Below are positions 21,631 to 39,577 of a DNA stretch of 39,953 nt, in pieces (position 1 is the first letter of the stretch; every line of letters starts with the position of its first letter). The position numbers were made by a program, and so were the translations under genes. The notes beneath the pieces are model-generated. The model saw only the letters and a program-made list of their open reading frames with translations. It had not been told where the DNA came from and did not search any database. Source of the DNA: a virus. Taxonomy: Duplodnaviria; Heunggongvirae; Uroviricota; Caudoviricetes. The DNA lies in the IMG/VR virus record IMGVR_UViG_2563366923_000006; one strand, given 5' to 3'.

Positions 21631-21954
21631 ATGCTTCTGACAATGGAAGAGATTAAAGCCCAACTCAGGCTGGATGAGGATTTCGATGCTGATGACCGCC
21701 ATCTGCAACTGCTGGCCTGTGCGGCGCAAAAGCGGACGGAAACGTATCTGAACCGGAAGCTCTATGCTCCGGATGAAACCATTCCGGACAGCGATCCGGA
21801 CGGGCTGCACCTGCCGGATGATATTCGTCTGGGGATGCTGATGCTTATCAGCCATTTTTACGAAAACCGCTCGTCGGTTACGGAAGTGGAGAAACTCGAC
21901 ATGCCGCAGAGTTTTGGCTGGCTTGTCGGCCCGTACAGGTACTTTCCGCAATGA
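21631..21954 (+). CDS. Head-tail connector (gp6-like)
   Basis: Size and position; pattern recalled from gp6-like adaptors. Confidence 0.7.
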   Translation: MLLTMEEIKAQLRLDEDFDADDRHLQLLACAAQKRTETYLNRKLYAPDETIPDSDPDGLHLPDDIRLGMLMLISHFYENRSSVTEVEKLDMPQSFGWLVGPYRYFPQ

Positions 21955-22361
21955 AAATTCGTCAGGCGCAGACCAGCGCAACCTACATTCTGCCGGACCC
22001 CGGTGAACTGAATAAACGCGTCCTGATCCGCCAGCGGGTGGATATGCCCGCGGATAACTTTGGCGTGGATCCTCAATACCCGGTTGCGTTCCGGACATGG
22101 GCGAAGGTTGTCCAGACCAGTGCCACCACCTGGCAGGAAACCGCGCAGACCGGGGACGCCATCACCCATTACATCACCATTCGTTACCGCCGGGGGATCA
22201 CCGCTGATTATGAGGTGGTCTGCGGTGACAGTGTGTACCGGGTGAAACGTCAGCGCGATCTGAACGGGGCGCGGCGCTTTCTGCTGCTGGAGTGTACGGA
22301 ACTGGGCGAATTTACGCAGAGTCACGGAGGCAGCAATGGCGACTCCCTTTTTTCACGTTGA
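21951..22361 (+). CDS. Head closure / head-tail joining protein
   Basis: Translationally coupled; typical position. Confidence 0.65.
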   Translation: MKIRQAQTSATYILPDPGELNKRVLIRQRVDMPADNFGVDPQYPVAFRTWAKVVQTSATTWQETAQTGDAITHYITIRYRRGITADYEVVCGDSVYRVKRQRDLNGARRFLLLECTELGEFTQSHGGSNGDSLFSR

Positions 22362-22842
22362 TGTTCAGCAGCCCGCGGAGATGCGCTTTAACCGTGCCCG
22401 TGTCCGGCGGGCGTTTGTCACGATTGGGCAGCGTCATATGCGTGATGCCCGTCGGCTGGTGATGCGCCGTGCGCGGTCGGCACCGGGTGAAAACCCCGGT
22501 TATCAGACCGGACGCCTGGCTCGTTCGATTGGTTACATGGTGCCGAGAGCCAGTAAAAAGCGAGCCGGTTTTATGACACGCATTGCCCCTAACCAGCGCA
22601 ACGGGAAGGGGAACCGGATGATCTCTGGTGACTTCTATCCGGCGTTTCTGTTTTTTGGTGTCCGGGGAGGAGCAAAGCGTCGTCGCAGCCATCATCGTGG
22701 TGCATCCGGTGGCAGCGGCTGGCGACTGGCTCCACGTAATAACTTTATGGTGGAAACGCTTGAAAAGAACCGCAGCTGGACACGCTATTTTCTGGCGCGG
22801 GAATTACGTAAATCACTGAAGCCGGAGCGACGACACAGATGA
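22336..22842 (+). CDS. HK97 gp10-like tail component
   Basis: Basic protein at the expected position; GGAGG SD. Confidence 0.65.
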   Translation: MATPFFHVDVQQPAEMRFNRARVRRAFVTIGQRHMRDARRLVMRRARSAPGENPGYQTGRLARSIGYMVPRASKKRAGFMTRIAPNQRNGKGNRMISGDFYPAFLFFGVRGGAKRRRSHHRGASGGSGWRLAPRNNFMVETLEKNRSWTRYFLARELRKSLKPERRHR

Positions 22843-23399
22843 AACTGACGCCTGTTATTGCTGCGCTGCGTGCCCGCTGCCCGTATTTTGAAAACCGGGT
22901 GGCAGGCGCGGCACAGTTCAAAAATCTGCCGGAGGTCGGAAAGCTGAGACTCCCGGCGGCGTATGTGGTACCGGGTGATGACTCTCCGGGAGAAAACAAA
23001 AGCCAGACCGACTACTGGCAGGAGCTGAAAGAGGGCTTCTCCGTGGTTGTCATACTGAGTAACGGGCGTGATGAGCGCGGTCAGTTTGCTTCGTATGATG
23101 TGGTGGACGATGTCCGGCAGATGCTCTTTAAGGCCCTGCTGGGCTGGAACCCGGAAGCGTGCGGTAACCCGATTACCTATGACGGCGGCACGCTGCTGGA
23201 TCTGAATCGTCATGAGCTGATTTATCAGTTCGATTTTTCGGTCATCAGCGAGCTGACCGAAGACGATACCCGCCAGCAGGATGACCTGAACAGTCTGGAT
23301 GAACTGCGAACGCTGGCGATTGATGTTGATTATCTCGATCCCGGTAACGGGCCTGACGGCGATATCGAACATCACACCGAAATAACCCTTCCTTCCTGA
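22839..23399 (+). CDS. Tail terminator / completion-like protein
   Basis: Position immediately before the sheath module. Confidence 0.55.
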   Translation: MKLTPVIAALRARCPYFENRVAGAAQFKNLPEVGKLRLPAAYVVPGDDSPGENKSQTDYWQELKEGFSVVVILSNGRDERGQFASYDVVDDVRQMLFKALLGWNPEACGNPITYDGGTLLDLNRHELIYQFDFSVISELTEDDTRQQDDLNSLDELRTLAIDVDYLDPGNGPDGDIEHHTEITLPS

Positions 23400-23407
23400 G
23401 AATCTTC

Positions 23408-23578
23408 ATGTTTGTGAAACCTGTTAAAGGGCGGTCAGTGCCTGACCCTGCCCGCGGTGACCTTTTGCCCACCGAAGGGCGAAATGTTGATGAGAACAAC
23501 TACTGGCTGCGCCGTGAAGCAGCGGGTGATATCCGGCGCGTGAATAAAAAGGTGAACACCGATGACGATAAGCTTTAA
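23408..23578 (+). CDS. Small Mu-type tail-module protein (DUF2635-like), 56 aa
   Basis: Below the ORF-track size cutoff; MFVKPVKGRSVPDP ... pattern recalled from Mu-like tail modules. Confidence 0.5.
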   Translation: MFVKPVKGRSVPDPARGDLLPTEGRNVDENNYWLRREAAGDIRRVNKKVNTDDDKL

Positions 23579-25058
23579 CACCATTCCGTCGAATACGCTG
23601 GTTCCGCTGTTTTATGCGGAAATGGATAACTCGGCGGCGAATACTGCACAGGACAGCGGAGCATCGCTGCTGATTGGTCATGCCAATAACGGTGCAGAGA
23701 TTGTTGCCAACAGTCTGGTGCTGATGCCGTCGGCAGACTATGCACGCCAGATTTGTGGTGCGGGAAGTCAGCTGGCGCGTATGGTCGAGGCTTATCGCCA
23801 GACCGACCCGTTTGGTGAGCTGTATGTGATTGCCGTTCCTGAATCCACGGGCGCGGCGGCAACGGTTACGCTGACGGTGACCGGGGCGGCAACCGAAACC
23901 GGCACGGTTAATGTTTATGTGGGACGTACCCGCGTACAGGCACCGGTGACCAACGGCGATAACGTTGCGACGATTGCCAGCAGTATCAAAGATGCCATCA
24001 ATGCCGTTCCGGCCCTGCCGTTTACGGCTTCATCTTCGGCAGGCGTGGTCACACTGACCGCGCGTCATAAGGGGCTTTGCGGGAATGAAATTCCTGTCAG
24101 CCTCAATTACTACGGGTTTGGTGGGGGCGAAGTGCTGCCAGCGGGCGTACAGATTGCCGTGGCGACGGGTACCGCCGGAACGGGCGCTCCGGTTCTCACC
24201 GGCGCGGTGGCTGCAATGGCGGATGAGCCGTTTGATTATATCGGCCTGCCGTTCAACGACACGGCCTCCGTTAACACGCTGGTGACCGAGATGAACGATA
24301 CCAGCGGTCGCTGGAGCTATGCGCGTCAGCTGTATGGTCATGTGTATACGGCAAAGATCGGCACGCTGTCAGAACTGGTGACCGCAGGTGACCAGTTTAA
24401 CCAGCAGCACATTACCCTGGCGGGATACGAAAAAGACACTCAGACGCCAGCCGACGAGCTGGCGGCAAGCCGTACCGCCCGCGCAGCGGTGTTTATTCGC
24501 AACGATCCGGCACGTCCCACGCAGACCGGTGAGCTGGTGGGTATGCTGCCTGCGCCGAAGGGGAAACGGTTCACGATGACCGAGCAACAGACCCTGCTGT
24601 CTCATGGCGTGGCAACGGCGTATGTCGAAAGTGGGGTACTGCGCATTCAGCGTGATGTCACCACGTACAGGAAAAACGCTTACGGGGTTGCGGATAACAG
24701 CTACCTCGACAGTGAGACGCTGCATACCAGCGCGTATGTACTGCGCAAACTGAAATCCGTCATTACCAGTAAGTACGGGCGTCACAAGCTTGCCAGTGAC
24801 GGTACCCGCTTTGGTCCCGGTCAGGCGATTGTCACCCCGGCGGTGATCAAAGGGGAACTGCTGGCAACCTACCGTCAGCTCGAGCGTGCGGGGATCGTGG
24901 AAAACTACGAACTGTTTAAGCAGTACCTGGTTGTGGAGCGTGATGCCAGCGATCCGAACCGCCTGAACACGCTGTTCCCGCCTGACTATGTTAACCAGTT
25001 GCGTGTCTTTGCCGTGGTTAACCAGTTCCGTCTTCAGTATTCAGAGGAGTCTGCATAA
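23562..25058 (+). CDS. Tail sheath protein (Mu gpL-like)
   Basis: 498 aa; followed by tube and chaperone with frameshift. Confidence 0.85.
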   Translation: MTISFNTIPSNTLVPLFYAEMDNSAANTAQDSGASLLIGHANNGAEIVANSLVLMPSADYARQICGAGSQLARMVEAYRQTDPFGELYVIAVPESTGAAATVTLTVTGAATETGTVNVYVGRTRVQAPVTNGDNVATIASSIKDAINAVPALPFTASSSAGVVTLTARHKGLCGNEIPVSLNYYGFGGGEVLPAGVQIAVATGTAGTGAPVLTGAVAAMADEPFDYIGLPFNDTASVNTLVTEMNDTSGRWSYARQLYGHVYTAKIGTLSELVTAGDQFNQQHITLAGYEKDTQTPADELAASRTARAAVFIRNDPARPTQTGELVGMLPAPKGKRFTMTEQQTLLSHGVATAYVESGVLRIQRDVTTYRKNAYGVADNSYLDSETLHTSAYVLRKLKSVITSKYGRHKLASDGTRFGPGQAIVTPAVIKGELLATYRQLERAGIVENYELFKQYLVVERDASDPNRLNTLFPPDYVNQLRVFAVVNQFRLQYSEESA

Positions 25059-25414
25059 TGGCCCGTATCGGGGGAACCTGTTATTTCAAAATTGACGGTC
25101 AGCAGCTATCGCTGACCGGCGGCATTGAGGTGCCCATGAACAAAACGGTTAACGATGACATCATCGGCCTGGACGGTTCAGTGGACCGCAAGGAAACTCA
25201 CCGTGCACCTTATGTCAAAGGGACCTTCAAGGTGCCGAAGAATTTTCCGGTGAGCAAAATCACCTCATCTGATGAGATGACCATCACTGCCGAGCTGGCG
25301 AACGGTCAGGTCTATGTACTGTCGTCTGCCTGGCTGCACGGCGAAGCGAACCATAATGCCGAAGAAGGCACGGTCGATCTTGAGTTCCACGGTGAAGAAG
25401 GGGATTACCAGTAA
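25058..25414 (+). CDS. Tail tube protein (Mu gpM-like)
   Basis: AGGAG SD, TAATG overlap with sheath. Confidence 0.8.
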   Translation: MARIGGTCYFKIDGQQLSLTGGIEVPMNKTVNDDIIGLDGSVDRKETHRAPYVKGTFKVPKNFPVSKITSSDEMTITAELANGQVYVLSSAWLHGEANHNAEEGTVDLEFHGEEGDYQ

Positions 25415-25683
25415 TGAAAGAGCTTGAGTTAAAGAAACCGATTACCGCTCATGGCGAGACACTCTCCGTACTGGAGTTTGATGAGCCCACCGGGAAAGAT
25501 GTCCGCGAGCTGGGATATCCCTACCAGATGAATCAGGATGAGTCCGTCAGACTTCTGGCGCATGTGGTATCGAAATACATCGTGCGGCTGGCGAAAGTGC
25601 CGCAAAGCTCTGTCGACCAGATGTCTCCGGCAGACCTGAATGCAGCGGCGTGGCTTGTGGCCGGTTTTTTCCTCCAGGCCTGA
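25414..25683 (+). CDS. Tail assembly chaperone
   Basis: Position between tube and tape measure; slippery site near 3' end. Confidence 0.7.
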   Translation: MKELELKKPITAHGETLSVLEFDEPTGKDVRELGYPYQMNQDESVRLLAHVVSKYIVRLAKVPQSSVDQMSPADLNAAAWLVAGFFLQA

Positions 25684-25832
25684 CGGCTGAATACCTCACT
25701 GATCGCTTCTTTGACTGCGCCAGTTACTGGCGCATTAATCCCTTCGAATTGCTGAATATGCCGATCAGTGAAATTCCCTTGCTGGTCAGTCAGGCAAACA
25801 GGATAGAGCAGGAGAAACGCACACATGGCTGA
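25650..25832 (+). CDS. -1 frame extension of tail assembly chaperone (programmed frameshift at T TTT TTC, 25665-25671)
   Basis: Slippery heptamer in zero frame; -1 frame stays open to the start of the tape measure gene. Confidence 0.6.
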   Translation: MACGRFFPPGLTAEYLTDRFFDCASYWRINPFELLNMPISEIPLLVSQANRIEQEKRTHG

Positions 25833-27660
25833 ATTTGAGCTTAAGGCGTTGATCACCGGTGTCGACAGGCTTTCTCCCGCGCTGTCGAAAATGCAAAAGA
25901 AAATCCGGGGATTTAAACGCCAGGCGGAAGAAGCGTCACAGGGTGGGCTGGCGCTTGGTGGCGGACTGGCAGCGGGTCTGACGCTTTCCCTGAAATCTTA
26001 TGCCGATCAGGAAAACGCCGCCACCGGGCTGAAAGTCGCCATGATGGATGCGAACGGCGAGGTTGGAAAGAGCTTTCAGGACATCAATAAACTGGCTATT
26101 GGCCTGGGTAACCAGCTACCCGGTACAACGGCTGATTTCCAGAACATGATGCAGATGCTGGTGCGTCAGGGGATCCCGGCAGAAAACATTCTTGGTGGTG
26201 TGGGTAAAGCGACAGCTTATCTTGCGGTACAACTGAAAAAAACACCGGAAGCGGCTGCTGAGTTTGCTGCAAAGATGCAGGATGCTACCGGAACGGCGTC
26301 AGAAGACATGATGGGGCTGTTCGACACTATCCAGAAGGCGTTTTATCTGGGCGTTGACGATACCAACATGTTGTCCTTCTTCACTAAAACCAGTTCTGTT
26401 CTGAAGATGGTGAACAAGGACGGTCTTCAGGCTGCACAGAGCCTTGCCCCCATCAGCGTCATGATGGATCAGATGGGGATGAACGGGGAGTCGGCAGGTA
26501 ATGCCCTGCGAAAAGTTATCCAGTCCGGATTAAGCGTTAAGAAAATCAGGGACGTCAATAAAGTCATGGCCCGCCAGAGACTCGGGGTACAGCTCGATTT
26601 TACTGACGGCAAAGGAAGTTTTGGCGGTCTTGATAACATGTTCAGGCAACTGGCAAAGCTGCGAAAACTGACCGACGTTAAGCGAACAGGTGTACTTAAG
26701 GCAATATTTGGTGATGATGCCGAAACCCTTCAGGTGGTCAATGCACTAATCGATAAAGGAAAGGATGGCTACGATCAGATCCAGCAGAAGATGAATAAAC
26801 AGGCCAGCCTGAATAAACGTGTTCAGGCACAGCTTGGTACGCTGTCCAACCTGTGGGAGGCAATGACGGGGACCGCAACTAACGGCCTTGCGGCTATTGG
26901 CGGCGCATTTTCTGGTGACGCCAAAAATATTACGCAATGGCTGGGGGAGTTGGGGGAAAAATTCACGAAGTTTGCGGATGAAAATCCCCGGGTTATTCGC
27001 GGCGTCGTCGGGCTTGCTGCCGGTCTTGCGATTCTGAAACTGGGATTGATGGGCGTTGGCGGTGCCATCAGTATTGTCAGCAGGATCATGTCGATGACGC
27101 CGATTGGCATGATTGCGACGGCGATAGCCCTGGCTGCGGGATTAATTATCACTAACTGGGATGTTGTCGGACCTTATTTCAAGAAGCTCTGGGAAACCAT
27201 TGGTCCTTATTTTGAGGCTGGCTGGGAACTTCTGAAGAAGGTTTTTGCCTGGTCGCCGCTGGGGATGGTAATCAATAACTGGGGACCGGTTGTTAAGTGG
27301 TTTCAGGATATGTGGGACAAGCTGAAGCCAATTATTGAGTGGTTTACCGACAGTTCCGGTGACACGGTCGATGCCATTAACTCGGCGCAGTGGGGCGCGG
27401 GTGCTTATGATGCTTATGGGACGGGAATACCGGCGCGGGGATACACACCTTATCCGGCGGTAGATCCGGCTCAGTCAAACAACGCCTCCGATGCTACAGG
27501 CCCGAATCCCTTCATGATTAACAAAGCTTCTGCGCCAAAAGTTGACGGTGAGATCAAGGTCTCTTTTGTGAATTCGCCTCCGGGTATGCGGGTTATGGAA
27601 ACGCGATCCAGCGGTTTTGATATAAATCACGATGTTGGCTATACGCATATTGGCAGATGA
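25825..27660 (+). CDS. Tail tape measure protein
   Basis: 611 aa, Ala/Gly-rich with hydrophobic segments. Confidence 0.85.
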   Translation: MAEFELKALITGVDRLSPALSKMQKKIRGFKRQAEEASQGGLALGGGLAAGLTLSLKSYADQENAATGLKVAMMDANGEVGKSFQDINKLAIGLGNQLPGTTADFQNMMQMLVRQGIPAENILGGVGKATAYLAVQLKKTPEAAAEFAAKMQDATGTASEDMMGLFDTIQKAFYLGVDDTNMLSFFTKTSSVLKMVNKDGLQAAQSLAPISVMMDQMGMNGESAGNALRKVIQSGLSVKKIRDVNKVMARQRLGVQLDFTDGKGSFGGLDNMFRQLAKLRKLTDVKRTGVLKAIFGDDAETLQVVNALIDKGKDGYDQIQQKMNKQASLNKRVQAQLGTLSNLWEAMTGTATNGLAAIGGAFSGDAKNITQWLGELGEKFTKFADENPRVIRGVVGLAAGLAILKLGLMGVGGAISIVSRIMSMTPIGMIATAIALAAGLIITNWDVVGPYFKKLWETIGPYFEAGWELLKKVFAWSPLGMVINNWGPVVKWFQDMWDKLKPIIEWFTDSSGDTVDAINSAQWGAGAYDAYGTGIPARGYTPYPAVDPAQSNNASDATGPNPFMINKASAPKVDGEIKVSFVNSPPGMRVMETRSSGFDINHDVGYTHIGR

Positions 27661-27676
27661 CGGAACCAGATATAAT
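27650..27676 (+). promoter_or_regulatory. Moron promoter candidate (TTGGCA-N15-TATAAT)
   Basis: Sigma70-like hexamers read directly. Confidence 0.45.
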
Positions 27677-27712
27677 TTGTCTTTAAGTTTGTTATCAACT
27701 GAAGGGAAATCT

Positions 27713-28090
27713 ATGGGTCTGTTACATGCCATTATAGGTAATGCCGGTGAAATTAATGCATCAGATGCACAACAGGAATTAGGGGCTGTTTTAGGTGAGG
27801 GAGAAAATGTCGAACTTGCCTATAAACTCATTCGTGACCAAATTATTCTGACTAACAGAAGGTTAATTTTTATTGATAAGCAGGGTGTCACAGGGAAAAA
27901 AGTAGAGTATCGTTCGATTCCTTATAAATCTGTGACAAACTTTTCTATTGAAACCGCCGGGCATCTTGATCTTGATGCTGAAATGAAGATATGGATTTCT
28001 GGTATTGCAGAACCGATAAAAAAACAGTTCAGTAAAGGAGCAAACATTTATAAATTGCAGGCTCATCTGGCTCAAAAAATAGCAGGGTAA
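27713..28090 (+). CDS. AT-rich moron protein with bacterial PH-domain-like pattern
   Basis: GAAGGGAAA upstream; composition visibly AT-richer than flanks; own promoter and terminator. Confidence 0.6.
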   Translation: MGLLHAIIGNAGEINASDAQQELGAVLGEGENVELAYKLIRDQIILTNRRLIFIDKQGVTGKKVEYRSIPYKSVTNFSIETAGHLDLDAEMKIWISGIAEPIKKQFSKGANIYKLQAHLAQKIAG

Positions 28091-28116
28091 ACCTTACATT
28101 AATTTATGTCTTTCAT

Positions 28117-28139
28117 GCCCACTTCGGTGGGCTTTTTTA
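28117..28139 (+). terminator. Rho-independent terminator after moron
   Basis: GCCCAC-TTCG-GTGGGC followed by TTTTTT. Confidence 0.75.
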
Positions 28140-28153
28140 TATCCGGAGTTTAT

Positions 28154-29524
28154 ATGACGTGGAAAGACAGGCTTCAGGACGCGTCATTTCGCGGTGTGCC
28201 GTTTAAGGTTGAAGAAGAAAGTGCGGGAACAGGTCGCCGTGTGGAAACACACGAATATCCGAACCGCGACAAACCCTATACCGAAGATCTGGGAAAAGTC
28301 ACTTTCCGCCCGTCCATCACGGCTTATGTGGTGGGCGATGACTGCTTTGACCAGCGCGATCGCCTGATTGACGCGCTGAATAAACCCGGTCCCGGCACGC
28401 TTGTCCACCCGACTTACGGTGAGCTGAAAGTCTGTGTTGACGGAGAGGTTCGGGTCAGCACATCGAAAAGTGAAGGGCGTATTGTCCGCTTTGACCTGAA
28501 GTTTGTCGAAGCGGGAGAACTCTCTTACCCCACATCAGGTGCGGCGACGGCGCAGACGCTGATGTCATCCTGTTCTGCACTGGATGACTGCATCAGTGAC
28601 AGCTTCAGCGGTTTCAGTATCGATGGTGTGGCGGATTTCGTGCAGAACGACGTTATCGGTAATGCCAGCATAATGCTGGGGTATGTTTCTGATGCGATGA
28701 AAGTGGTGGATTCTGCCGTATCGGATGCCGCCAGGCTGTTGCAGGGGGATATCTCGGTACTTCTGCCGCCGCCATCGTCAGGCAAAAATTTCGTTGAGCA
28801 GGTGCAGAAAATGTGGCGTACCGGGAAACGCCTTTATGGTAACGCCAGCGACCTGGTCACCATGATCAAAACGCTTTCCGGTGTCAGCCTCGGCAGCGAT
28901 CTGCAACCGCGCGGCGTCTGGAAAACGGACAGTAAAACCACCGCCACGGCGACGCAGCAGCGTAACGTGGTTGCCAGCACCCTTCGTGCGACCGCAATCA
29001 GCGAAGCGGCGTATGCCGTCACCCGATTGCCTGCGCCAACAACTTCCGCGGTGATGCAGAATGCCGCAGTGGGGCAGTCAACAACTTCCGCGGTGATGCA
29101 GAATGCCGCAGTGGGGCAGTCAACAACTTCCGCGCAGAGCACCGGCTGGCCTTCCGTCACGCATCCGGCACTGAACAATGCACCGGCGGTGAAAAACACG
29201 GTTGACCTGCCAACGTGGGAAGAACTGACTGACATTCGCGACACACTGAATACGGCAATTGATAAGGAGTTGTCCCGTACAACCAGTGATGCGCTGTTTC
29301 TGGCGCTGCGCCGGGTGAAAGCAGATCTGAATGCGGATATCAACACGCGCCTTGAACAGTCTGCTCGGATCATTCAGCGCACGCCGGATGAGGTCTTACC
29401 CGCGCTGGTGCTGGCGGCGACCTGGTTTGATAACGCGGCGCGTGACGCGGACATTATCCGGCGTAATGCCATTACGCATCCCGGCTTTGTGCCGGTGATC
29501 CCTCTGAAGGTGCCAGTGCAATGA
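28154..29524 (+). CDS. DNA circularization protein N-like (Mu gpN-type tail protein)
   Basis: N-terminal MTWKDRLQDASFRGVPFKVE pattern; GGAG SD. Confidence 0.75.
   Translation: MTWKDRLQDASFRGVPFKVEEESAGTGRRVETHEYPNRDKPYTEDLGKVTFRPSITAYVVGDDCFDQRDRLIDALNKPGPGTLVHPTYGELKVCVDGEVRVSTSKSEGRIVRFDLKFVEAGELSYPTSGAATAQTLMSSCSALDDCISDSFSGFSIDGVADFVQNDVIGNASIMLGYVSDAMKVVDSAVSDAARLLQGDISVLLPPPSSGKNFVEQVQKMWRTGKRLYGNASDLVTMIKTLSGVSLGSDLQPRGVWKTDSKTTATATQQRNVVASTLRATAISEAAYAVTRLPAPTTSAVMQNAAVGQSTTSAVMQNAAVGQSTTSAQSTGWPSVTHPALNNAPAVKNTVDLPTWEELTDIRDTLNTAIDKELSRTTSDALFLALRRVKADLNADINTRLEQSARIIQRTPDEVLPALVLAATWFDNAARDADIIRRNAITHPGFVPVIPLKVPVQ
29037..29134 (+). repeat. In-frame 42-bp tandem duplication (2.3 copies) encoding repeated TTSAVMQNAAVGQS
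   Basis: Two perfect 42-bp copies (29037-29078, 29079-29120) plus 14-bp partial third. Confidence 0.9.
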
Positions 29525-30600
29525 ACGATAACGTCACGCTACGGGTAAATGGCCGGGAGTGGAATGGCTGGACATCGGTGCGCATCGGTGCCGGTATTGA
29601 ACGGCTGGCGCGGGATTTCAGCGTGGAGATCACCCGCCAGTGGCCGGGAGATGAGGGTATCACCACGCTTCAGCCGCGCATTAAAAATGGTTCAAAAGTG
29701 GAAGTGCTGATTGGTGATGAGCTGGTGATCACCGGCTGGGTGGAGGCGACCCCCGTTCGTTACGATGCCCGTTCGGTCAGCACCGGTATTGCCGGACGTA
29801 GTCTGACGGCTGACCTGATTGACTGTGCAGCCGAACCGACACAGTTTAACGGACGCTCGCTGGTGCAGATTGCGCAGGCGCTTGCTGCGCCTTTCGGCAT
29901 TGAGGTGGTGAACAGCGATGCGCCGTCGGGTGTTATTCCGGATGTCCAGCCTGATCACGGTGAAACGGTGATCGAGGTGATCAACAAAATACTCGGTCAG
30001 CAGCAGGCGCTGGCTTATGACGACCCGCACGGCAGGCTGGTGATTGGTGGTATTGGCTCAACGCGGGCACATACCGCGCTGGTACTTGGGGAAAACATCC
30101 TTTCCTGTGATACGGAGAAGAGTATCCGGGAGCGGTTTTCAGTTTACCAGGTGGCGGGGCAGCGTGCCGGAAACGACGATGATTTCGGTGAGGCCACCAC
30201 CACCGCGCTGCGGGCCCGCACAGAGGACGCATTTATTGCCCGTTACCGTCCGATGTATATCAGGCAGACAGGGCAGGCTACGGGGGCAGGCTGTATTGCC
30301 CGTGCGGACTTTGAAGCCCGACAACGGGCGGCGCGGACGGATGAAACCACCTATGTGGTGCAGGGCTGGCGACAGGGTAACGGTACGCTGTGGCAGCCCA
30401 ACCAGCGGGTGATTGTCTTTGATCCGGTCTGTGGTTTCGACAATACCGAACTGCTTGTTTCGGAAGTCACGTTTACTCAGGACCAGAACGGCACCCTGAC
30501 GGAAATCCGTGTCGGCCCACCTGATGCTTATCTGCCTGAACCCGAAGCCCCCGGCGCGCGGAAAAAGAAAAAAGCCAGAGTACAGGAGGAGCCGTTCTGA
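29521..30600 (+). CDS. Baseplate hub / Mu gpP-like tail protein
   Basis: Size and position in Mu-type baseplate module. Confidence 0.75.
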   Translation: MNDNVTLRVNGREWNGWTSVRIGAGIERLARDFSVEITRQWPGDEGITTLQPRIKNGSKVEVLIGDELVITGWVEATPVRYDARSVSTGIAGRSLTADLIDCAAEPTQFNGRSLVQIAQALAAPFGIEVVNSDAPSGVIPDVQPDHGETVIEVINKILGQQQALAYDDPHGRLVIGGIGSTRAHTALVLGENILSCDTEKSIRERFSVYQVAGQRAGNDDDFGEATTTALRARTEDAFIARYRPMYIRQTGQATGAGCIARADFEARQRAARTDETTYVVQGWRQGNGTLWQPNQRVIVFDPVCGFDNTELLVSEVTFTQDQNGTLTEIRVGPPDAYLPEPEAPGARKKKKARVQEEPF

Positions 30601-31148
30601 TGAGGACGATTGAAGCCATGCAGCGACAACTCCTCGGCCTGATTGGGCGGGCCGTGGTGAAAAGCATCAGTGCCGCCACGAAATGTCAGACCGTGGATGT
30701 GTCCCTGATTGCCGGTGAACCCAAAGCCGGGGTTGAACATCTTGAACCCTACGGTTTTACCGCAAGGGCAAACAGCGGTGCGGAAGCGGTGGTGTTGTTT
30801 CCGGATGGCGACCGTTCTCATGCGGTGGTTGTTACGGTGTCGGACCGTCGCTACCGCCTGAAAGGGCTGCAAACGGGGGAGGTGGCTGTCTATGACGATC
30901 AGGGGCAGTCCGTGACGCTGACCCGGGAGGGGATCGTGGTGGACGGTGCAGGTAAAACGATCACGTTTCGCAATGCGCCTAAGGCACGCTTTGAAATGGA
31001 CCTGGAAGTGACAGGACAGGTGAAAGACCTGTGCGACTCCGGCGGCACCACCATGTCAGCGATGCGGCTTGCCTATAACGGGCATCGTCACAGAGAGAAC
31101 GGTCAGGGAAGTAACACCGACAAACCTGATAAAGCGATGGAGGCATGA
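30600..31148 (+). CDS. Baseplate spike (gpV / Mu gp45-like)
   Basis: Order and size. Confidence 0.7.
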   Translation: MRTIEAMQRQLLGLIGRAVVKSISAATKCQTVDVSLIAGEPKAGVEHLEPYGFTARANSGAEAVVLFPDGDRSHAVVVTVSDRRYRLKGLQTGEVAVYDDQGQSVTLTREGIVVDGAGKTITFRNAPKARFEMDLEVTGQVKDLCDSGGTTMSAMRLAYNGHRHRENGQGSNTDKPDKAMEA

Positions 31149-31573
31149 TGGAACTGTGGCTGACGGTGAACGGTAAACGCACCTGCGCCAGCGCACCGCT
31201 GGATCCGCTGCCCCGCGCCGTGGTGATTTCCCTGTTCACCTGGCGGCGGGCGGAGCCTGATGACAACGCCGACGTCCCGATGGGATGGTGGGGGGATACC
31301 TGGCCTGCGGTACAGAATGACCGTTACGGCTCCCGACTGTGGCTGCTTCAGCGCAGCAAACTGACCAATCAGCTGGTGCAGACGGTAAGGGGGTATATCC
31401 GCGAATGCCTGCAATGGATGATTGATGACGGCGTGGTGTCCCGTATTGATCTGGATATCCGCCGCACCGGGATTAATGAGCTTGGTAACAGTATCACTCT
31501 CTGGCGTCGTGACGGACCGGTAATGATTTCTTTTGATGATCTGTGGAGTGCGATAACGCATGGCGGACAGTGA
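31145..31573 (+). CDS. Baseplate protein (Mu gp46 / gpW-like)
   Basis: Order and size. Confidence 0.7.
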   Translation: MMELWLTVNGKRTCASAPLDPLPRAVVISLFTWRRAEPDDNADVPMGWWGDTWPAVQNDRYGSRLWLLQRSKLTNQLVQTVRGYIRECLQWMIDDGVVSRIDLDIRRTGINELGNSITLWRRDGPVMISFDDLWSAITHGGQ

Positions 31574-32618
31574 ATTTCAGCGCCCGACGCTGGCAGAAAA
31601 TATCAGTATGCTCCGTAACGATTTATTCGCCAGGCTGGACGTCAGCGACACGCTCCGGCGCATGGATGAAGACGTGCGGGCAAAGGTGTATGCGGCGGCG
31701 CTGCATACGGTTTACGGGTACATCGATTATCTGGCAATGAATATGCTGCCTGACCTGTGCGATGAGTCCTGGCTGGCGCGACATGCTGCGATGAAACGGT
31801 GTCCGCGCAAGGGGGCCACGGCTGCCAGCGGGTATATGCGCTGGGAAGGTGTCAGCGATGGCCTGAAGGTGACTGCCGGGAGCGTGATTCAGCGCGATGA
31901 CCTGGTTCAGTACACGGCAACTGCCGATGCAACCAGCTCCGGTGGTGTCCTGCGTGTGCCGATCACTTGCTCAACTACAGGCGCGGTCGGTAACGCTGAC
32001 GACGGTACGGCATTAATCCTGGTCACGCCGGTGAATGGTCTGCCGTCTTCCGGTGTTGCAGATACCCTGACTGGCGGATTCGATACTGAAGATCTGGAAA
32101 CGTGGCGCGCCCGCGTCATTGAGCGGTATTACTGGACGCCGCAGGGCGGGGCTGACGGGGACTATGTCGTCTGGGCTAAAGAAGTGCCCGGCATTACCCG
32201 CGCATGGACATACCGTCACTGGATGGGAACGGGAACTGTCGGTGTGATGATTGCCAGCAGTGACCTGATTAATCCCATTCCGGAAGAATCAACGGAAACG
32301 GCGGCAAGACAACATATCGTGCCACTGGCCCCGGTGGCAGGCTCTGATTTGTATGTGTTCAGGCCGGTGGCACATACGGTGGATTTTCATATCCGCGTGA
32401 CGCCGGACACACCGGAAATACGGGCTGCCATCACCGCGGAGTTGCGTTCGTTCCTGCTGCGTGATGGTTATCCGCAGGGAGAACTGAAGGTATCGCGTAT
32501 CAGTGAGGCGATTTCCGGTGCGAACGGGGAATACAGCCATCAGTTGTTTGCACCGGCAGACAATATCTCCATTGCAAAAAATGAACTGGCGGTACTGGGG
32601 ACGATTTCATGGACGTGA
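31560..32618 (+). CDS. Baseplate J-like protein (Mu gp47)
   Basis: Order and size. Confidence 0.75.
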
Positions 32619-33193
32619 CAAACGATGATTACATCCGTCTGTTGTCGGCACTGTTGCCCCCCGGTCCGGCGTGGTCAGCCAGCGATCCGGCGATTGCCGG
32701 TGCGGCACCGTCATTAACCCGCGTTCATCAGCGTGCGGATGCCCTGATGCGGGAGCTGGATCCGCGCACCACCACCGAACTGATAAATCGCTGGGAGCGT
32801 CTGTGCGGCCTGCCGGATGAATGTATTCCCGCAGGGACACAGACCCTTCGCCAGCGTCAGCAACGACTGGATGCGAAGGTTAACCTGGCGGGCGGCATCA
32901 ATGAGGATTTTTACCTTGCACAGCTTGCTGCCCTGGGCAGACCAGACGCCACCATCACGCGATACGACAAAAGCACGTTCACCTGCTCATCGGCCTGTAC
33001 TGACGCGGTGAATGCGCCGGAATGGCGGTATTACTGGCAGGTCAACATGCCAGCCGCCACCAACACCACCTGGATGACATGTGGCGATCCCTGTGATTCC
33101 GCACTGCGTATCTGGGGCGACACCGTTGTCGAGTGTGTGCTTAACAAACTCTGCCCGTCGCATACCTACGTAATTTTTAAATATCCGGAGTAA
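32609..33193 (+). CDS. Tail protein (Mu gp48 / YmfQ-like)
   Basis: Position before tail fibre. Confidence 0.7.
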
Positions 33194-33196: not shown

Positions 33197-33865
33197 ATGC
33201 ATCGTATAGACACGAAAACCGCGCAGAAGGATAAGTTCGGCGCGGGTAAGAACGGTTTTACCCGTGGTAATCCCCAGACTGGTACGCCTGCCACCGATCT
33301 GGATGATGACTACTTTGACATGTTGCAGGAGGAGCTTTGCAGCGTTGTGGAGGCATCCGGTGCCAGCCTGGAGAAGGGGCGGCATGACCAGTTGCTTACC
33401 GCACTTCGCGCACTGCTGTTAAGCCGCAATAATCCGTTTGGTGATATCAAATCGGACGGCACGGTACCAACGGCTCTCGAAAACCTTGGTTTAGGAGATA
33501 TCAGTGCTACAGGTGTTGCGACAGGTAGTATGGGCGGAACCGGATATGCCATATTTCCGATGATGATTGGCGGTGCACGTAAGACTTTTATTATGCAATG
33601 GGGATTGCTGACGCCTCTGAAATCAGGTGGCTATGTGAATATTAACCTTCCTGTCGCTTTTCCTACTATGGTGATGCAGGCATATGCAACACATGATAAT
33701 GCGACACTAAACACACGCCCGACAGTATATGCAATTACTACAACAAGCCGAACCACTATCACTGCGACGGCGACGTGCTTAGATGCTGGCTCAGTGGGCG
33801 CTACAGTGACACGCAGTAGTGACGATACTGCGTGTTACGGTCGTTATTTTGCAATAGGGTGCTGA
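33197..33865 (+). CDS. Tail fibre protein; constant N-terminus fused to variable C-terminus inside invertible segment
   Basis: [10 protein letters not shown]-terminus typical of e14/Mu-type fibres; recombination site inside the gene. Confidence 0.8.
33475..33498. repeat. Invertase crossover site, left (hix/gix-like; GAAAACC-TT-GGTTTAG)
   Basis: Inverted partner at 35337-35362; encodes ENLGLGD. Confidence 0.65.
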
Positions 33866-33866
33866 A

Positions 33867-34310
33867 ATGAATCTTAAATATTTTTCTCCATCTGAAAATG
33901 CGTTTTATGCCGGGGAGCTTAAAGAAAGCTATATCGCTGCTGGCTCATGGCCTTCTGATGCCTCGGAGGTTGATGAAAGTCTTTATCTTGAGTTTATCGA
34001 TAAACCGCCAGCAGGTAAGTATCGAGGAGTGGATAATGCAGGAATGCCCTGCTGGCTTGAAATTCCTCCTCCCACAGTAGAGGAAATGGCATCGAATGCA
34101 GAGAATATAAGACAGCAGCTCATTGATAAGGCAAATGTTTATATAAACAATCGTCAGTGGCCGGGAAAAGCAGCGATAGGCCGTTTAAAGGCAGATGAAC
34201 TGGAACGATATAACCTTTGGCTGGATTATCTGGACGCACTGGAACTGGTCGATACTTCCGGTGCGCCAGATATTGAATGGCCTACGCCTCCGGCAGCTCA
34301 GGCCAGATGA
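33867..34310 (+). CDS. Tail fibre assembly protein (Tfa)
   Basis: C-terminal LDYLDALELVDTS-APDIEWP motif. Confidence 0.75.
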   Translation: MNLKYFSPSENAFYAGELKESYIAAGSWPSDASEVDESLYLEFIDKPPAGKYRGVDNAGMPCWLEIPPPTVEEMASNAENIRQQLIDKANVYINNRQWPGKAAIGRLKADELERYNLWLDYLDALELVDTSGAPDIEWPTPPAAQAR

Positions 34311-34884
34311 CATCCGGCGCGGTGCTGGTATCCGTTGCCGTCACCGCGTCAATGTAATCCAGCACAGCGTTTAATCGGGTGGTTTCTGTCTGCGTCAGCT
34401 TCCTCCCGGCCTGCAATTTCAGTTGAATCAGACTAATGGAAGCCATTGCAGTATCAATCAGTGACTGACGCTGTGCTTCTGCCGCGCTTACTGCGGCGCT
34501 ATGCTGTGCCTCAGTATCTGTCACCCATTTCTCACCATCCCATTTATCGTATGGCGTTAACGGGGCGATAGTGGTTGTATTTTCGGGGTAATCACCCAGA
34601 GCTGTGATTTCTTTGGCGTCTCCCGTTTCGGTGTTATAGACGATTTCACCGCGATGGTCTGGCACATATTCCCATGAGTTTAAATCTGCCGAACGGCAGA
34701 TTGCATAACCAGCCTTATGTATACCAGGTTCATCCAGACAGGAATATGCCGGGATACCAACACCAACGGCAAGATATTCATTTGAAGTGGAAATATATTC
34801 CCGAGTTTCACCATCATAGCTATAGACGGTAATATCCCCCGCCTTCGTGGCAATAAGCTCGCTATTTAATACAGCGTTATCCAT
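34282..34884 (-). CDS. Alternative tail fibre assembly protein (Tfa')
   Basis: Shares C-terminal LDYIDAVTATDTSTAPDVIWP motif with Tfa. Confidence 0.75.
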   Translation of the reverse strand: MDNAVLNSELIATKAGDITVYSYDGETREYISTSNEYLAVGVGIPAYSCLDEPGIHKAGYAICRSADLNSWEYVPDHRGEIVYNTETGDAKEITALGDYPENTTTIAPLTPYDKWDGEKWVTDTEAQHSAAVSAAEAQRQSLIDTAMASISLIQLKLQAGRKLTQTETTRLNAVLDYIDAVTATDTSTAPDVIWPELPEA

Positions 34885-35349
34885 TATGCAGCCCTCACGA
34901 TAAAGTTAAATGCAATATTTCGCGCACGTGTTTCCGTTGATGTTCTGGCAACAAGTGATGCATCAAAATAATAATTCGCCTGTTTATATGTACCACCTGT
35001 CGCAATTGGTGTGAGATTTGGTTGCACTATTGAAGAGGTAAATGCGCCGAAAGTATTATTATTTGTCCCCGTGGTCATATCAAAAAAGCTACCTGTAATA
35101 TTTTGCAGCGTATCGCTCTGAGCACTCAATAACGCTCGCCCACTGTCCACTCCACGCCCATCATCCCAGCCACGAATAAACTCACCCCGCAGATCTGGCA
35201 GCACAAGACCGGGGTAAACCAGTGCCAGCTTCGGATAATTTTCAGCTGCAAATGGAGCGCCGTTACATTTCAGCCATCCTGTTGGTGGAGTGGCTAAAGG
35301 CCACGGAACAGGCACACCAACGGGTAATGCCGAACCTTCTCCCAAACCA
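34884..35349 (-). CDS. Alternative tail-fibre C-terminal cassette (Sv'), expressed only after inversion
   Basis: Begins at crossover (INVGLGEGSA); LPDLRGEFIRGWDDGRG tail-collar-like motif. Confidence 0.65.
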
Positions 35350-35362
35350 ACGTTTATGAAAA
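35337..35362. repeat. Invertase crossover site, right (CCAAACC-AA-CGTTTAT)
   Basis: Reverse complement matches left site around the TT core. Confidence 0.65.
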
Positions 35363-35416
35363 TGCAGAAATAGCGCGCAAATGGCATCGTTCCTGTTTTT
35401 GTCAGGAGGAGCTATC

Positions 35417-35973
35417 ATGCTTATTGGCTATGTTCGCGTATCAACAAATGACCAGAACACCGATCTACAACGTAATGCGTTGAACTGTGCAGGATGTGAG
35501 CTGATTTTTGAAGACAAGATAAGCGGTACAAAGTCCGACAGACCAGGACTGAAAAAGCTGCTCAGGACATTATCGGCAGGTGACACGCTGGTGGTCTGGA
35601 AACTGGACCGACTGGGGCGCAGTATGCGGCATCTTGTCGTGCTGGTGGAAGAGTTGCGCGAACGTGGCGTTAATTTTCGCAGCCTGACGGATGCTATTGA
35701 TACCAGCACACCAATGGGGCGCTTTTTCTTTCATGTGATGGGTGCCCTGGCTGAAATGGAGCGAGAGTTTATTGTCGAACGTACTAGGGCGGCTTTGCCG
35801 CAGCACGACAAGAAGGGAGGAACGGTGGGCGAAAGCCAAAGCTGACAGTAGAACAATGGGGGCAGGCTGGCAGGTTGATTGAATCGGGAATATATCAGCA
35901 GCAAGTCGCACTGATTTATGATCTGGGTATTTCAACGGTGTATAAAAAATTCCCTGTAGCAAGTAAACCATAG
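35417..35973 (+). pseudogene. Serine DNA invertase (Pin/Gin/Hin family), apparently frameshifted, separating the catalytic domain from the C-terminal HTH
   Basis: Catalytic domain intact to ~35790, then premature stop at 35845; the +1 frame continues as a Gin-like HTH (PKLTVEQWGQAGRLIESGI...) to 35973. Confidence 0.65.
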
Positions 35974-35999
35974 CCTTACGCCACATTGATGATCGCGGA

Positions 36000-36695
36000 T
36001 TATGCACTATTTTTAGGTCTTGTAACCCGAGGTGGGAGTTGTTTGGTTATATGTTCAAGTGATTTTTTGCCCAAGATAGTTCTTTGGACAAAACTTTCTA
36101 TAGCTTCTAGCATTTGTTCGAACTCACTTTTATTCGGGCTCCAACTGCGATGTGCGGCGGCGTTTCCTGCATCAATTACTGAAGATATAACGCATGCCTC
36201 AGTGTCGCCTATGACTCCATCTTGTTTTAATTTTTCAACTTTTTCACCAAGCGGCAAACCGGGGTGAATTTGTAACAGTTCAGCAGTTCGATCAAAAATC
36301 GTCCGTAAACCGATGGACGAAAGAATGAAATGGTCAGAAGTATATGAAGAATACATTTCATTAAATATTTGAAAGAGCTGACGATCAACTGATTCAAGCT
36401 TGGATAACCATATCGGAGCTTGAAATGTTTCAGCGGCAGGATAGGTAGTGATCATATCTATAGGCGTTTCTACAAATTCACCATCACGATATTCGTGGGT
36501 AGTATGCTCACTGAAGTGTTCGTTGTGGTGATAGAAGACAGTATCACAGCCATTGCATTGGAGTAGGTGATGGTAATGGTACCCATAAACTGGATATTGG
36601 GAATCCTCCCAGCTAGTGGTTAGCTTCCCATGCACAGTGCAGTTACGTAACCCACCGCATGTAGGGCAAAGAGCCTTGAGTATTTCCTTTTTCAT
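36000..36695 (-). CDS. Cargo protein: N-terminal zinc ribbon (CxxC...CxxC) plus C-terminal helical domain resembling DUF4145
   Basis: Cys pairs C10/C13 and C47/C50; C-terminal GDTEACVISSVIDAGNAAAH resembles the DUF4145 GNxxAH motif (recalled); AT-rich. Confidence 0.55.
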   Translation of the reverse strand: MKKEILKALCPTCGGLRNCTVHGKLTTSWEDSQYPVYGYHYHHLLQCNGCDTVFYHHNEHFSEHTTHEYRDGEFVETPIDMITTYPAAETFQAPIWLSKLESVDRQLFQIFNEMYSSYTSDHFILSSIGLRTIFDRTAELLQIHPGLPLGEKVEKLKQDGVIGDTEACVISSVIDAGNAAAHRSWSPNKSEFEQMLEAIESFVQRTILGKKSLEHITKQLPPRVTRPKNSA

Positions 36696-36770
36696 AAAGT
36701 CTCTGATTCTATATGTAGGTTAAGACCACTATTAGCTATACGGACCTAATAATCAATCGTGTGCAGATAC

Positions 36771-36797
36771 AAAAAAGCCCGTATAGCGGGATTTCAT
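36771..36797 (-). terminator. Weak hairpin with T-run on the minus strand
   Basis: CCCG-CTATA-CGGG followed by TTTTTT on the minus strand; only a 4-bp stem. Confidence 0.3.
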
Positions 36798-37043
36798 GTC
36801 ACTAAGGGCCGCGGCTACTTTGCGTATCTTTTTTGTCTTCTCACCGTCTGGCCGGTATTTTGCTGAGACTGCTTATTTCCAGTTTTTACTAGTGCTGTAC
36901 TGGTACTGCCCAATCATGATTGGTGGGGGACGGAGTTGAGACCGCAGCCACGTCGTATGCAAGAACGCGCTGCGGTTGGCTGGTGAACTTTCGATAGTGC
37001 GAGTATTGAATGATTTCCAGCCGTTACAGATTTTACGTGTTTA

Positions 37044-37292
37044 TTAGTGAACAAACCACTCGTCAGCAGATTCCCAGGTATCTTTCAGAGTCTCCTGAAC
37101 AAAAGTTTTTGCAGAATCCTTATCTGCGGTGCGTGTAACAGAAAGGCCATCATTGCTGGTGGCTTTTACTAACACCTCAACATCGTCATAACGCTTACTG
37201 ATGCGTCGGGTTAATTCTTCCTTTAACGCATCCACAGCACCGGTTGGCATTTTAGTCATTTTTTCTTTGGCTATGCAGATTTCAATACGCAT
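37044..37292 (-). CDS. dinI: DinI-like DNA-damage-inducible protein
   Basis: MRIEICIAK ... [11 protein letters not shown] matches the DinI family pattern; GGAGGG SD. Confidence 0.8.
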
Positions 37293-37307: not shown

Positions 37308-37323
37308 CTGTGTTTGTATACAG
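37308..37323. promoter_or_regulatory. LexA box (CTGTGTTTGTATACAG)
   Basis: CTGT-N8-ACAG match directly upstream of the dinI-like SD. Confidence 0.7.
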
Positions 37324-37335: not shown

Positions 37336-37351
37336 CTGTATGGATAAACAG
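37336..37351. promoter_or_regulatory. LexA box (CTGTATGGATAAACAG)
   Basis: Second CTGT-N8-ACAG match 12 bp from the first. Confidence 0.65.
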
Positions 37352-37353: not shown

Positions 37354-38451
37354 TCAAGAGGTCTTATTTCTGCTCCTTTGGAGCTCTTCAAAACGATTAT
37401 GTAAAGATTTCGGATACAGTTCGGTATATACCTGCCATAGCACGTTTAATGAACGATGCCCTGTAACTTGGGCGACTTCCTCAATACTAAAACCAGCCTC
37501 AAATAAGCGACTTGCCCCTTCTCTACGCAAATCATGGTATCGCAGATCCTTAATACCTAATTTGCTTCTTACTCTCTGAAATCCCGCAGTAACAGAAGTG
37601 CTGTTATATGGAAAAATGAATTCCGATTTTTGGGGCTGTCGTTGGACGATATCCCAGGCTTCCCCAAGCAAGGCTACTTTCATGTGGTTACCTTCCTTTT
37701 TGCGTGGATCTTTCCTGTCTCTTACGAGTATAGATTTTTGTTCCTGGTCGAGATCTTCCCATCGTAACCGGCATACTTCTCCGATTCGCATACAGGACCA
37801 TACAGAAAATTTGAGGATATCAACGAACGGAATTTTTGAGCATTTATGAGTAGATCGTTGTTGAAGGCCTGCAATGAGCATGTCCAGTTCATCAGATGCT
37901 GGTCTACGATTACGACGGTTTGATTTACCAATCAAACCAAGTTTAAGTAGATATGGGCGAGCGCTTTTCGCCGGGTTTGATGTGTAATTAATTCCGTATA
38001 CAGGTTTGGCCGCATCCAGAACACTGCCAAGATAACTAACATCGTGGCTGACTGTTGCAGGACCTGCACCAGCGTTGTTTCTTAGCCTGCAATGTTCAAT
38101 TACGTCATTTTCTGTCAGTTCAGATAGTTTGATCGCGGAGATGTCACTATCCATAAGCAGTTCCAGCACATATCTTTTAGTACGGCCTGCTTTACCTCCG
38201 GCATTTGGGTCATTTAAATATTTGTGTAGTAAGTCACGGACTGTAAGTCCGTCAACTGCATTTGATGATGGAATGCCATATAGATCTAATTCCATCACTT
38301 TCTGTGTGCCCCATGTTTTGGCATGAGCATGTTTAGGGAATGTTTTGCTTTCCCTGTAAGTGATAACACCTTTTTCTTTGATAATCACATTACAGCGATA
38401 GCGTGGTGTGCCATCGGATTTTAGTCGTTTCTCTATGTTATAGTACGCCAT
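37354..38451 (-). CDS. int: Tyrosine integrase (dusA-associated type)
   Basis: 365 aa with C-terminal catalytic motifs (HDLRR ... VTGH ... Y); abuts dusA. Confidence 0.9.
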   Translation of the reverse strand: MAYYNIEKRLKSDGTPRYRCNVIIKEKGVITYRESKTFPKHAHAKTWGTQKVMELDLYGIPSSNAVDGLTVRDLLHKYLNDPNAGGKAGRTKRYVLELLMDSDISAIKLSELTENDVIEHCRLRNNAGAGPATVSHDVSYLGSVLDAAKPVYGINYTSNPAKSARPYLLKLGLIGKSNRRNRRPASDELDMLIAGLQQRSTHKCSKIPFVDILKFSVWSCMRIGEVCRLRWEDLDQEQKSILVRDRKDPRKKEGNHMKVALLGEAWDIVQRQPQKSEFIFPYNSTSVTAGFQRVRSKLGIKDLRYHDLRREGASRLFEAGFSIEEVAQVTGHRSLNVLWQVYTELYPKSLHNRFEELQRSRNKTS

Positions 38452-38539: not shown

Positions 38540-39577
38540 ATGCACGATAATCATGAAACACAAAAAATTAATCAAACCAGCGTGATGCCTGAAAAAACTG
38601 GTGTTTACTGGAATTCTCGGTTTAGCATTGCTCCTATGCTCGACTGGACGGACAGACATTGCCGCTATTTCTTGCGTCTGCTTTCCCGCAATACGTTGCT
38701 GTATACTGAAATGGTAACTACAGGGGCGATTATTCACGGTAAAGGTGATTACCTGGCGTATAGTGAAGAAGAACATCCGGTAGCGTTGCAACTCGGCGGT
38801 AGCGATCCGGCGGCGCTGGCGCAGTGTGCGAAGCTGGCAGAAGCGCGTGGATATGATGAGATCAACCTGAATGTCGGCTGCCCGTCTGACCGGGTGCAGA
38901 ACGGCATGTTTGGTGCGTGTCTGATGGGTAATGCGCAGCTGGTTGCCGACTGCGTGAAAGCGATGCGCGATGTGGTGTCGATTCCGGTGACGGTGAAAAC
39001 GCGTATTGGCATCGACGACCAGGACAGCTATGAATTTCTCTGCGATTTCATCAACACCGTTTCCGGCAAAGGCGAGTGTGAGATGTTCATCATCCATGCA
39101 CGTAAAGCCTGGCTTTCGGGGTTAAGTCCGAAAGAAAACCGTGAGATCCCGCCGCTCGATTATCCGCGTGTGTATCAACTGAAGCGTGACTTTCCGCATC
39201 TGACAATGTCGATTAACGGTGGTATCAAGTCGCTGGAAGAGGCCAAAGCACACCTGCAACATATGGATGGCGTGATGGTCGGGCGCGAGGCGTATCAGAA
39301 TCCGGGTATTCTGGCGGCGGTAGACCGGGAGATCTTTGGTTCCTCGGATATCGATGCCGATCCGGTGGCGGTAGTGCGCGCCATGTATCCGTACATTGAG
39401 CGTGAACTCAGCCAGGGGACGTATCTCGGTCATATTACCCGGCATATGTTGGGCTTGTTCCAGGGTATTCCTGGCGCGCGGCAGTGGCGGCGTTATTTAA
39501 GTGAAAATGCCCATAAAGCGGGTGCAGACATTAATGTGCTGGAACACGCGCTCAAACTGGTGGCGGATAAGCGTTAA
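38540..39577 (+). CDS. dusA: tRNA-dihydrouridine synthase A; 5' end probably element-derived
   Basis: 345 aa typical DusA; first ~35 codons AT-rich unlike the rest of the gene. Confidence 0.9.

Follow-up and report, generated by a model that had tools for sequence, protein, structure and literature searches.

A Cys4-domain and DUF4145/HEPN protein encoded in the cargo slot of an Escherichia coli dusA prophage, a candidate single-gene anti-phage system

RAZR (ring-activated zinc-finger RNase, RNase being ribonuclease), formerly PD-T7-4, is a defence protein of E. coli UMB1727 (RRL46918.1; PDB 9Y6U/9Y9C) (PMC13017515, PMC9519451). Encoded by a single gene and acting by abortive infection, it has an N-terminal Cys4 zinc finger of ~65 aa that a conserved linker joins to a DUF4145 domain at the C terminus (PMC13017515). 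RAZR assembles as a 24-mer round rings of phage portal or Erf-like protein, after which it cleaves single-stranded RNA. Neither R146 nor H154 is dispensable, and the zinc-finger domain, the most variable part of the protein, sets phage specificity (PMC13017515). The present analysis concerns a gene of related layout at the end of a dusA prophage, the DUF4145 gene at positions 36000-36695 (minus strand) of the viral record IMGVR_UViG_2563366923_000006; the whole stretch of 39,953 nucleotides is referred to below as the window. Judged by analogy, this gene is best read as stand-alone prophage cargo whose product shields the lysogen from other phages through abortive infection, a reading that we favour with moderate confidence.

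Other described systems combine the same modules in different ways. DS-38 (clone HEP2, WP_001313577.1), a validated single-gene E. coli system from DefensePredictor (PMC13092281; 10.1101/2025.01.08.631726), joins a HEPN domain to a zinc finger that differs from that of PD-T7-4 (PMC13092281). The 2013 survey by Anantharaman et al. placed DUF4145 in the HEPN superfamily, listed 'Zinc Ribbon' among its fusion partners and found the Rx4-6H motif conserved in ~80% of DUF4145 members (PMC3710099). In the BREX-associated protein BxaP, an N-terminal DUF4145 domain is followed by a HEAT-like C-terminal domain (PMC10799925), and the anti-plasmid protein Ishtar1 carries an N-terminal DUF4145/HEPN domain and a C-terminal beta/alpha domain (10.64898/2026.07.06.735840). 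The zinc-domain plus HEPN type of single-gene defence is already known; what is new at this locus is a sensor domain without a structural match and a changed active-site signature.

Domain architecture and comparison with RAZR

The gene is complete and encodes 231 aa, with its stop codon at 36000-36002; the open reading frame (ORF) list, RefSeq and PHROG 1305 all support it, and the ORF lies exactly where the first-pass annotation, a reading of the sequence alone, had placed it. An identical RefSeq protein, WP_001514810.1, is annotated 'DUF4145 domain-containing protein'. PHROG 1305 ('DNA binding protein') matches over its full length (residues 2-225 against positions 11-224 of the 226-position profile, E 5.3e-43). 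This PHROG represents the same family in phage and prophage genomes; its label is an untested annotation that mentions neither HEPN nor defence. No NCBIfam profile matched WP_001514810.1. Despite the PHROG match, the gene is known only from prophages and genomes, as tblastn of 50,697 deposited phage genomes returned no match to the protein at E<=1e-5.

The C-terminal helical HEPN domain comprises residues 97-219 (36039-36407, minus strand). The first-pass annotation had likened a helical C-terminal region with a GNAAAH motif to DUF4145 and proposed a profile search as a check, which bore the resemblance out: Pfam DUF4145 (PF13643) matches residues 115-199 (36099-36353) with E 8.8e-10 and 39 bits, above the gathering cut-off of 23.1, and the motif lies within the peptide AGNAAAHRSW. 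In an AlphaFold model built from 12 homologues (mean predicted local distance difference test score, pLDDT, 84), residues 97-219 are helical and show the four-helix up-down HEPN fold. The nearest structural neighbours include HEPT and HEPN-MNT toxins, with RnlA, LsoA, Las1 and AbiV lower in the list; Foldseek gave no significant match for the whole chain and retrieved the same HEPN toxins at a probability of up to 0.99.

The N-terminal domain, residues 1-96 (36408-36695, minus strand), is a putative trigger sensor. In the model, residues 5-86 form seven beta strands, an all-beta domain that is followed by a linker marked by P86, P94 and W96. Two candidate zinc knuckles, C10-P-T-C13 (36657-36668) and C47-N-G-C50 (36546-36557), occupy the turns that join strand 1 to strand 2 and strand 3 to strand 4, respectively. 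Conservation was counted in an alignment of 107 diverse homologues with a mean column identity of 29%: C10 and C47 are present in 107/107 and C13 and C50 in 106/107. No Pfam zinc-ribbon model was significant for WP_001514810.1 (zf-ChsH2 came at E 0.13), so the case for a zinc site is made by the invariant Cys4 pattern together with knuckles predicted as beta-hairpins. Of the N-terminal CxxC...CxxC zinc ribbon proposed at first reading, the Cys4 pattern stands but has no significant Pfam zinc-ribbon match. Sequence and model together suggest that the Cys4 site, presumably with zinc as its ligand, staples the beta-sheet domain.

Four further residues, R131, K152, H182 and W185, are also invariant in all 107 members, while R183 (103/107) and D135 (102/107, the remaining five having Glu) are near-invariant. 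The signature motif A176-G-N-A-A-A-H182-R183-S-W185 (36141-36170, minus strand) would supply a putative catalytic His-Arg pair. R131 (codon 36303-36305, minus strand) lies in the helix 123-140 with D135 and K152 nearby, and may stand in for the canonical HEPN Arg, which is absent. At position 174, eight residues before H182, where the R146...H154 spacing of RAZR would place an Arg (an equivalence drawn from spacing only), every one of the 107 members has T, V, I or A, nor does an Arg occur in any of them at positions 175-181; the Rx4-6H signature is consequently missing, and the family falls within the smaller share of DUF4145 proteins that lack the canonical Arg. Any catalysis by the domain would need H182 acting with R183 and/or R131.

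Among characterised systems, RAZR is the closest. Both are single genes of similar length (231 vs ~219 aa) in which an N-terminal Cys4 domain, a linker and a C-terminal DUF4145/HEPN domain follow one another in one polypeptide; both conserve the His that is essential in RAZR, have the N-terminal domain as the fastest-evolving part and occur on mobile elements beside integrases. In the present family, the mean pairwise identity is 28.6% in the N-terminal domain vs 38.8% in the HEPN domain, with the former lower in 93% of 5,671 pairs; by this measure the N-terminal domain is the faster-evolving one. Unlike RAZR, however, WP_001514810.1 has a larger sensor domain that is not the compact ~65-aa TFIIS/RPB9-type zinc ribbon, and in place of an Arg eight residues before the His it conserves R131, H182 and R183.

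The other systems are further removed. DS-38 shares the single-gene layout of HEPN and zinc finger, but identity with it was rejected on accession and length, as WP_001313577.1 is encoded by a 1101-bp gene (~366 aa) (PMC13092281). BxaP and Ishtar1 resemble WP_001514810.1 in using a DUF4145/HEPN module as presumed effector against mobile elements; in both, however, the domain order is the reverse and a Cys4 domain is lacking, so that the Ishtar layout (N-terminal HEPN, C-terminal beta/alpha) is not found here.

The cargo slot between invertase and dinI

The dinI-int arm was found at a coverage of at least 80% in 723 of 5,426 complete E. coli genomes, 34 of which also carry the DUF4145 gene, always at an identity of at least 99.7%. 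In every case examined the gene order is invertase, DUF4145 gene, dinI, int and dusA. In two sister prophages that share the Mu-like tail genes, the DUF4145 gene is absent and an intact invertase lies ~100 bp from dinI, while in lambdoid dusA prophages with the same arm the slot holds EspW, EspM2, DUF1076 proteins, Hok/Gef or hypothetical genes. The first-pass annotation had placed the gene in a variable slot between the tail-fibre invertase and the dinI-int arm and had suggested comparing the occupancy of that slot across related dusA prophages; the comparison agrees with it, the slot being empty or otherwise filled elsewhere and the gene not a fixed core gene.

Compared with the empty-slot prophages, BLAST homology ends at 35781, inside the invertase, and resumes at 36937. 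The swapped-in cargo module accordingly spans 35782-36936 and comprises a heterologous 3' end of the invertase, the DUF4145 gene and its 5' region (36696-36936, minus strand), which is module-specific, being absent from the empty-slot sister prophages and not conserved with homologues of other genera. The conserved arm starts at ~36940-36970 in all compared prophages. Variable presence at a fixed site, sharp breakpoints and a GC content of 0.415 (GC at third codon positions, 0.345), where the structural genes at 15000-33000 reach 0.552, are all features of prophage cargo ('moron') genes. The gene is indeed AT-richer than the structural genes, as had been pointed out, yet its neighbours dinI and int are equally AT-rich (GC 0.43).

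The slot is bordered on the left by a Gin/Pin-type tail-fibre invertase (35417-35973, plus strand) that has been frameshifted by the loss of one G after 35790, as judged from the RefSeq annotation 'frameshifted' and alignment to WP_021563296.1. The lost G falls in a G run. The intact 185-aa invertase WP_021563296.1 is present in other strains that carry this cargo module, and RefSeq labels the invertase 'frameshifted' in some strains; the frameshift is therefore taken as a later mutation, and the idea that it was caused by the recombination that imported the module was rejected. With its invertase frameshifted, this strain can probably no longer flip the invertible tail-fibre switch (~33197-35387), in which the tail-fibre and assembly genes are convergent. 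On the right, the slot is bordered by a DinI-like gene (37044-37292, minus strand), followed by a tyrosine integrase of the dusA-targeting type (37354-38451, minus strand; RefSeq, ORF list) and dusA (38540-39577, plus strand). The first-pass annotation had described noncoding DNA on both flanks of the DUF4145 gene. This holds on the 5' side, where 348 bp separate the gene from dinI. On the 3' side, however, the apparent gap is the C-terminal part of the frameshifted invertase; as the invertase really extends to its stop at 35971-35973, only 26 bp lie between the convergent stops.

The gene is probably a separate transcription unit outside SOS control. Two perfect LexA boxes (CTGT-N8-ACAG) lie between dinI and int, at 37308-37323 and 37336-37351, and adjoin dinI, which is therefore probably SOS-induced. 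SOS control of the DUF4145 gene was considered and rejected, because the boxes are upstream of dinI only and a hairpin with a T-run stands between dinI and the gene; no LexA box was found in 36696-36936. That hairpin, CCCGCTATACGGG then CTTTTTTGT on the minus strand (36769-36790), was read from the sequence, its stem also being found in the scan; with its T-run it is likely an intrinsic terminator that insulates the DUF4145 gene from dinI transcription, and the gene's own promoter presumably lies within 36696-36936. Elsewhere in the window, further perfect LexA-box matches occur at 4866-4881 and 11692-11707, and 29 matches with at most one mismatch were counted vs 12.9 expected. An Rfam scan of the flanks gave nothing credible, the one match being to CssrB at 18.6 bits vs a gathering score of 76.

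Unrelated lambdoid prophages, among them prophages of O157:H7 and O111 strains, have the same arm, and beside their dinI stand type III secretion system (T3SS) effectors (EspW, EspM2, DUF1076/NleG-like) or Hok/Gef (loci L003, L005, L006 and L007). The sharp homology boundary at ~36937-36970 suggests a recombination hotspot for cargo exchange. A copy on a 55.6-kb plasmid record (NZ_CP142787.1, pSX12-2) was dismissed as a probable misassembly, because the record carries the prophage end together with chromosomal dusA, pspG, qorA, dnaB and alr; the chromosome record of that strain begins in the same region. At the opposite prophage end, the first ORF of the window (1-462, plus strand; 153 aa, WP_001547986.1, 'hypothetical') is directly downstream of a gene just outside the window for a Panacea domain-containing protein, which adjoins a dusA fragment. 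The two look like a PanA-type toxin-antitoxin or defence pair, so that both prophage ends would carry cargo.

Spread and neighbourhoods of the family

The family is large. A profile search of 1.84 billion representative proteins returned 2,708 clusters at E<=1e-3, 1,408 at E<=1e-10 and 289 at E<=1e-30, and nearly all of the best 150 clusters are ~230 aa long and align end to end. DUF4145 was matched in 107/107 family members. With the AGNAAAHRSW peptide pattern alone, 136 species-representative genomes were found to carry relatives; they belong to the Gamma-, Beta- and Alphaproteobacteria, Acidobacteriota, Bacteroidota and Chloroflexota. Across genera, the coding sequence alone is conserved and the flanks are not. 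More than 10 genera of the Sphingomonadales (loci L037-L052) share an apparently identical homologue, its tblastn statistics being the same and its identity to the query 41%, which suggests recent spread on a common mobile element.

Members of the WP_001514810.1 family are stand-alone genes at prophage ends and in defence islands. Homologues of ~70% identity in Citrobacter and Enterobacter lie at prophage ends, by an integrase or the chromosomal junction, with DinI/UmuD-like genes and tail-fibre modules near; an Erwinia homologue is found near a SymE toxin. The Burkholderia lata homologue (40% identity, locus L018) is in a dense defence-island context: it stands beside a Gabija-like AAA_15/DUF2813 and UvrD pair, the same locus (12062-16861) also encodes a PRTase-CE/winged helix-turn-helix protein and a reverse transcriptase, and an FHA and Ser/Thr kinase pair lies upstream. 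In a survey of 224 nearest-neighbour ORFs of 62 dereplicated loci, the neighbours included Type I and Type IIG restriction-modification genes, a CBASS cyclase with CapP and effector, PycTM, RmrA and DrmMI, as well as transposases and one TraG. No neighbour family recurs in more than 4/112 neighbours, and the gene therefore has no conserved partner. A hidden RNA or gene partner was rejected on the same ground, together with the lack of an Rfam match and the unconserved flanks.

Not all positions are alike. At four Pseudomonas loci (L022, L023, L029 and L035), the gene (8001-8690) lies in a P2-type tail cluster, between gpR/gpS (tail completion) and gpV/gpW (baseplate), a position that differs from the cargo position in E. 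coli. In a P2-like prophage of Citrobacter freundii that carries a 70%-identical homologue (locus L012), the tail-fibre module has an unusual insert: a Macro-domain gene (11678-12289) separates the tail fibre from its assembly gene.

Proposed function, alternatives and significance

The patchy, cargo-like distribution and the Cys4 plus DUF4145/HEPN layout support the accessory or anti-phage role suggested at first reading, and a defence role is what a specialist would expect of such a gene. If RAZR/PD-T7-4 and other HEPN defence proteins are a guide, the N-terminal domain would bind a phage-made protein or assembly, and binding would alter HEPN pairing or oligomerisation such that a composite RNase site forms. 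Cleavage of RNA, catalysed by H182 together with R183 and/or R131, would then shut down translation and stop phage production. The sensor domain resembles the RAZR zinc finger in neither size nor shape, so the trigger is probably a different one. A stronger claim, which we hold only tentatively and consider somewhat less probable than a role in abortive infection as such, is that WP_001514810.1 is the founding example of a distinct and widespread single-gene immune family, with a new Cys4-stapled seven-stranded sensor that responds to a cue other than ring proteins and with RNA cleavage by R131, H182 and R183.

Several points weigh against a role in abortive infection. The main weakness is that the catalytic competence of a HEPN domain without its Arg, as read from the sequence, is unproven: the canonical Arg of HEPN Rx4-6H (Rx7H in RAZR) was not found in any of the 107 members. 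As certain HEPN families that lack this Arg have no catalytic activity, the protein need not be an RNase. Further, no consensus promoter was identified in 36696-36936. The search of defence-system models that had been proposed alongside the Pfam search came back blank, with no match to WP_001514810.1 in PADLOC-DB v2.0.0 at E<=10 and no PD-T7-4 match among the 107 relatives at E<=0.01. PADLOC matches (E<1e-5) were found for ~18 of the 224 neighbour ORFs, a rough estimate without a matched control, and many neighbourhoods of distant homologues consist of ordinary housekeeping genes. Finally, the accession WP_001514810 appears in no searchable paper and not among the DefensePredictor table rows listed.

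The alternative that survives best, although we consider it unlikely, is that the protein is a HEPN toxin serving the prophage itself through addiction or stabilisation, control of induction, or RNA processing. HEPN domains are common as toxins of toxin-antitoxin systems, HEPT and HEPN-MNT are among the structural neighbours, and the Panacea-domain pair at the other prophage end indicates that the element collects toxin-antitoxin-like cargo. A constitutive free-standing toxin would, however, require an antitoxin, and the gene has neither an adjacent MNT or conserved partner nor a conserved flanking RNA or ORF across genera; the sister prophages, moreover, manage without the gene.

It is less probable still that WP_001514810.1 is a divergent RAZR orthologue, activated in the same way as a 24-mer on portal or Erf-like rings. 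The shared domain order, similar size and common Pfam effector domain speak for it, as does the position of a single gene by an integrase, which is also reported for PD-T7-4 homologues. Searches of PDB sequences with phmmer and two family profiles, however, retrieved no RAZR chain at E<=10, even though the set does include 9Y6U/9Y9C (probed with SECphi27 Gp77), and a word-indexed search with the 107-sequence profile returned family members only. Membership of RAZR was rejected on the negative PADLOC and PDB sequence tests and on the differences in N-domain size, fold and Arg position, with no direct alignment to the RAZR sequence. Equally doubtful is an action against other mobile elements such as conjugative plasmids, as for Ishtar1. 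DUF4145/HEPN proteins can give anti-plasmid immunity, and the conjugation gene (TraG-like) and several transposases among the neighbours fit such a target; the reversed domain order of Ishtar and the fact that the gene and its closest relatives ride on prophages do not. The remaining option, a non-catalytic nucleic-acid-binding or regulatory protein with the HEPN fold as scaffold, as the PHROG label suggests, is similarly improbable, because the retention of H182, R131, K152, W185 and R183 in very divergent members points to an active site rather than a scaffold, the distribution is unlike that of a phage regulator, and the label carries no experimental weight.

For a protein that would defend the lysogen by abortive infection, RAZR sets the precedent: a zinc-finger and HEPN protein reads the geometry of a phage assembly and its zinc finger picks the phages, and the effector type is kept here. 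The WP_001514810.1 family was missed by the 2023 PADLOC defence library; if it is active, a large family of hundreds to thousands of sequence clusters would join the known defence repertoire. An active family would also provide a second independent case of small sensor domains switching on HEPN RNases, and a test of HEPN catalysis without the canonical Arg. As regards prophage annotation, this locus identifies the junction of invertase and dinI in dusA prophages as a site for cargo, occupied by defence genes or, in enterohaemorrhagic E. coli, by T3SS effectors.
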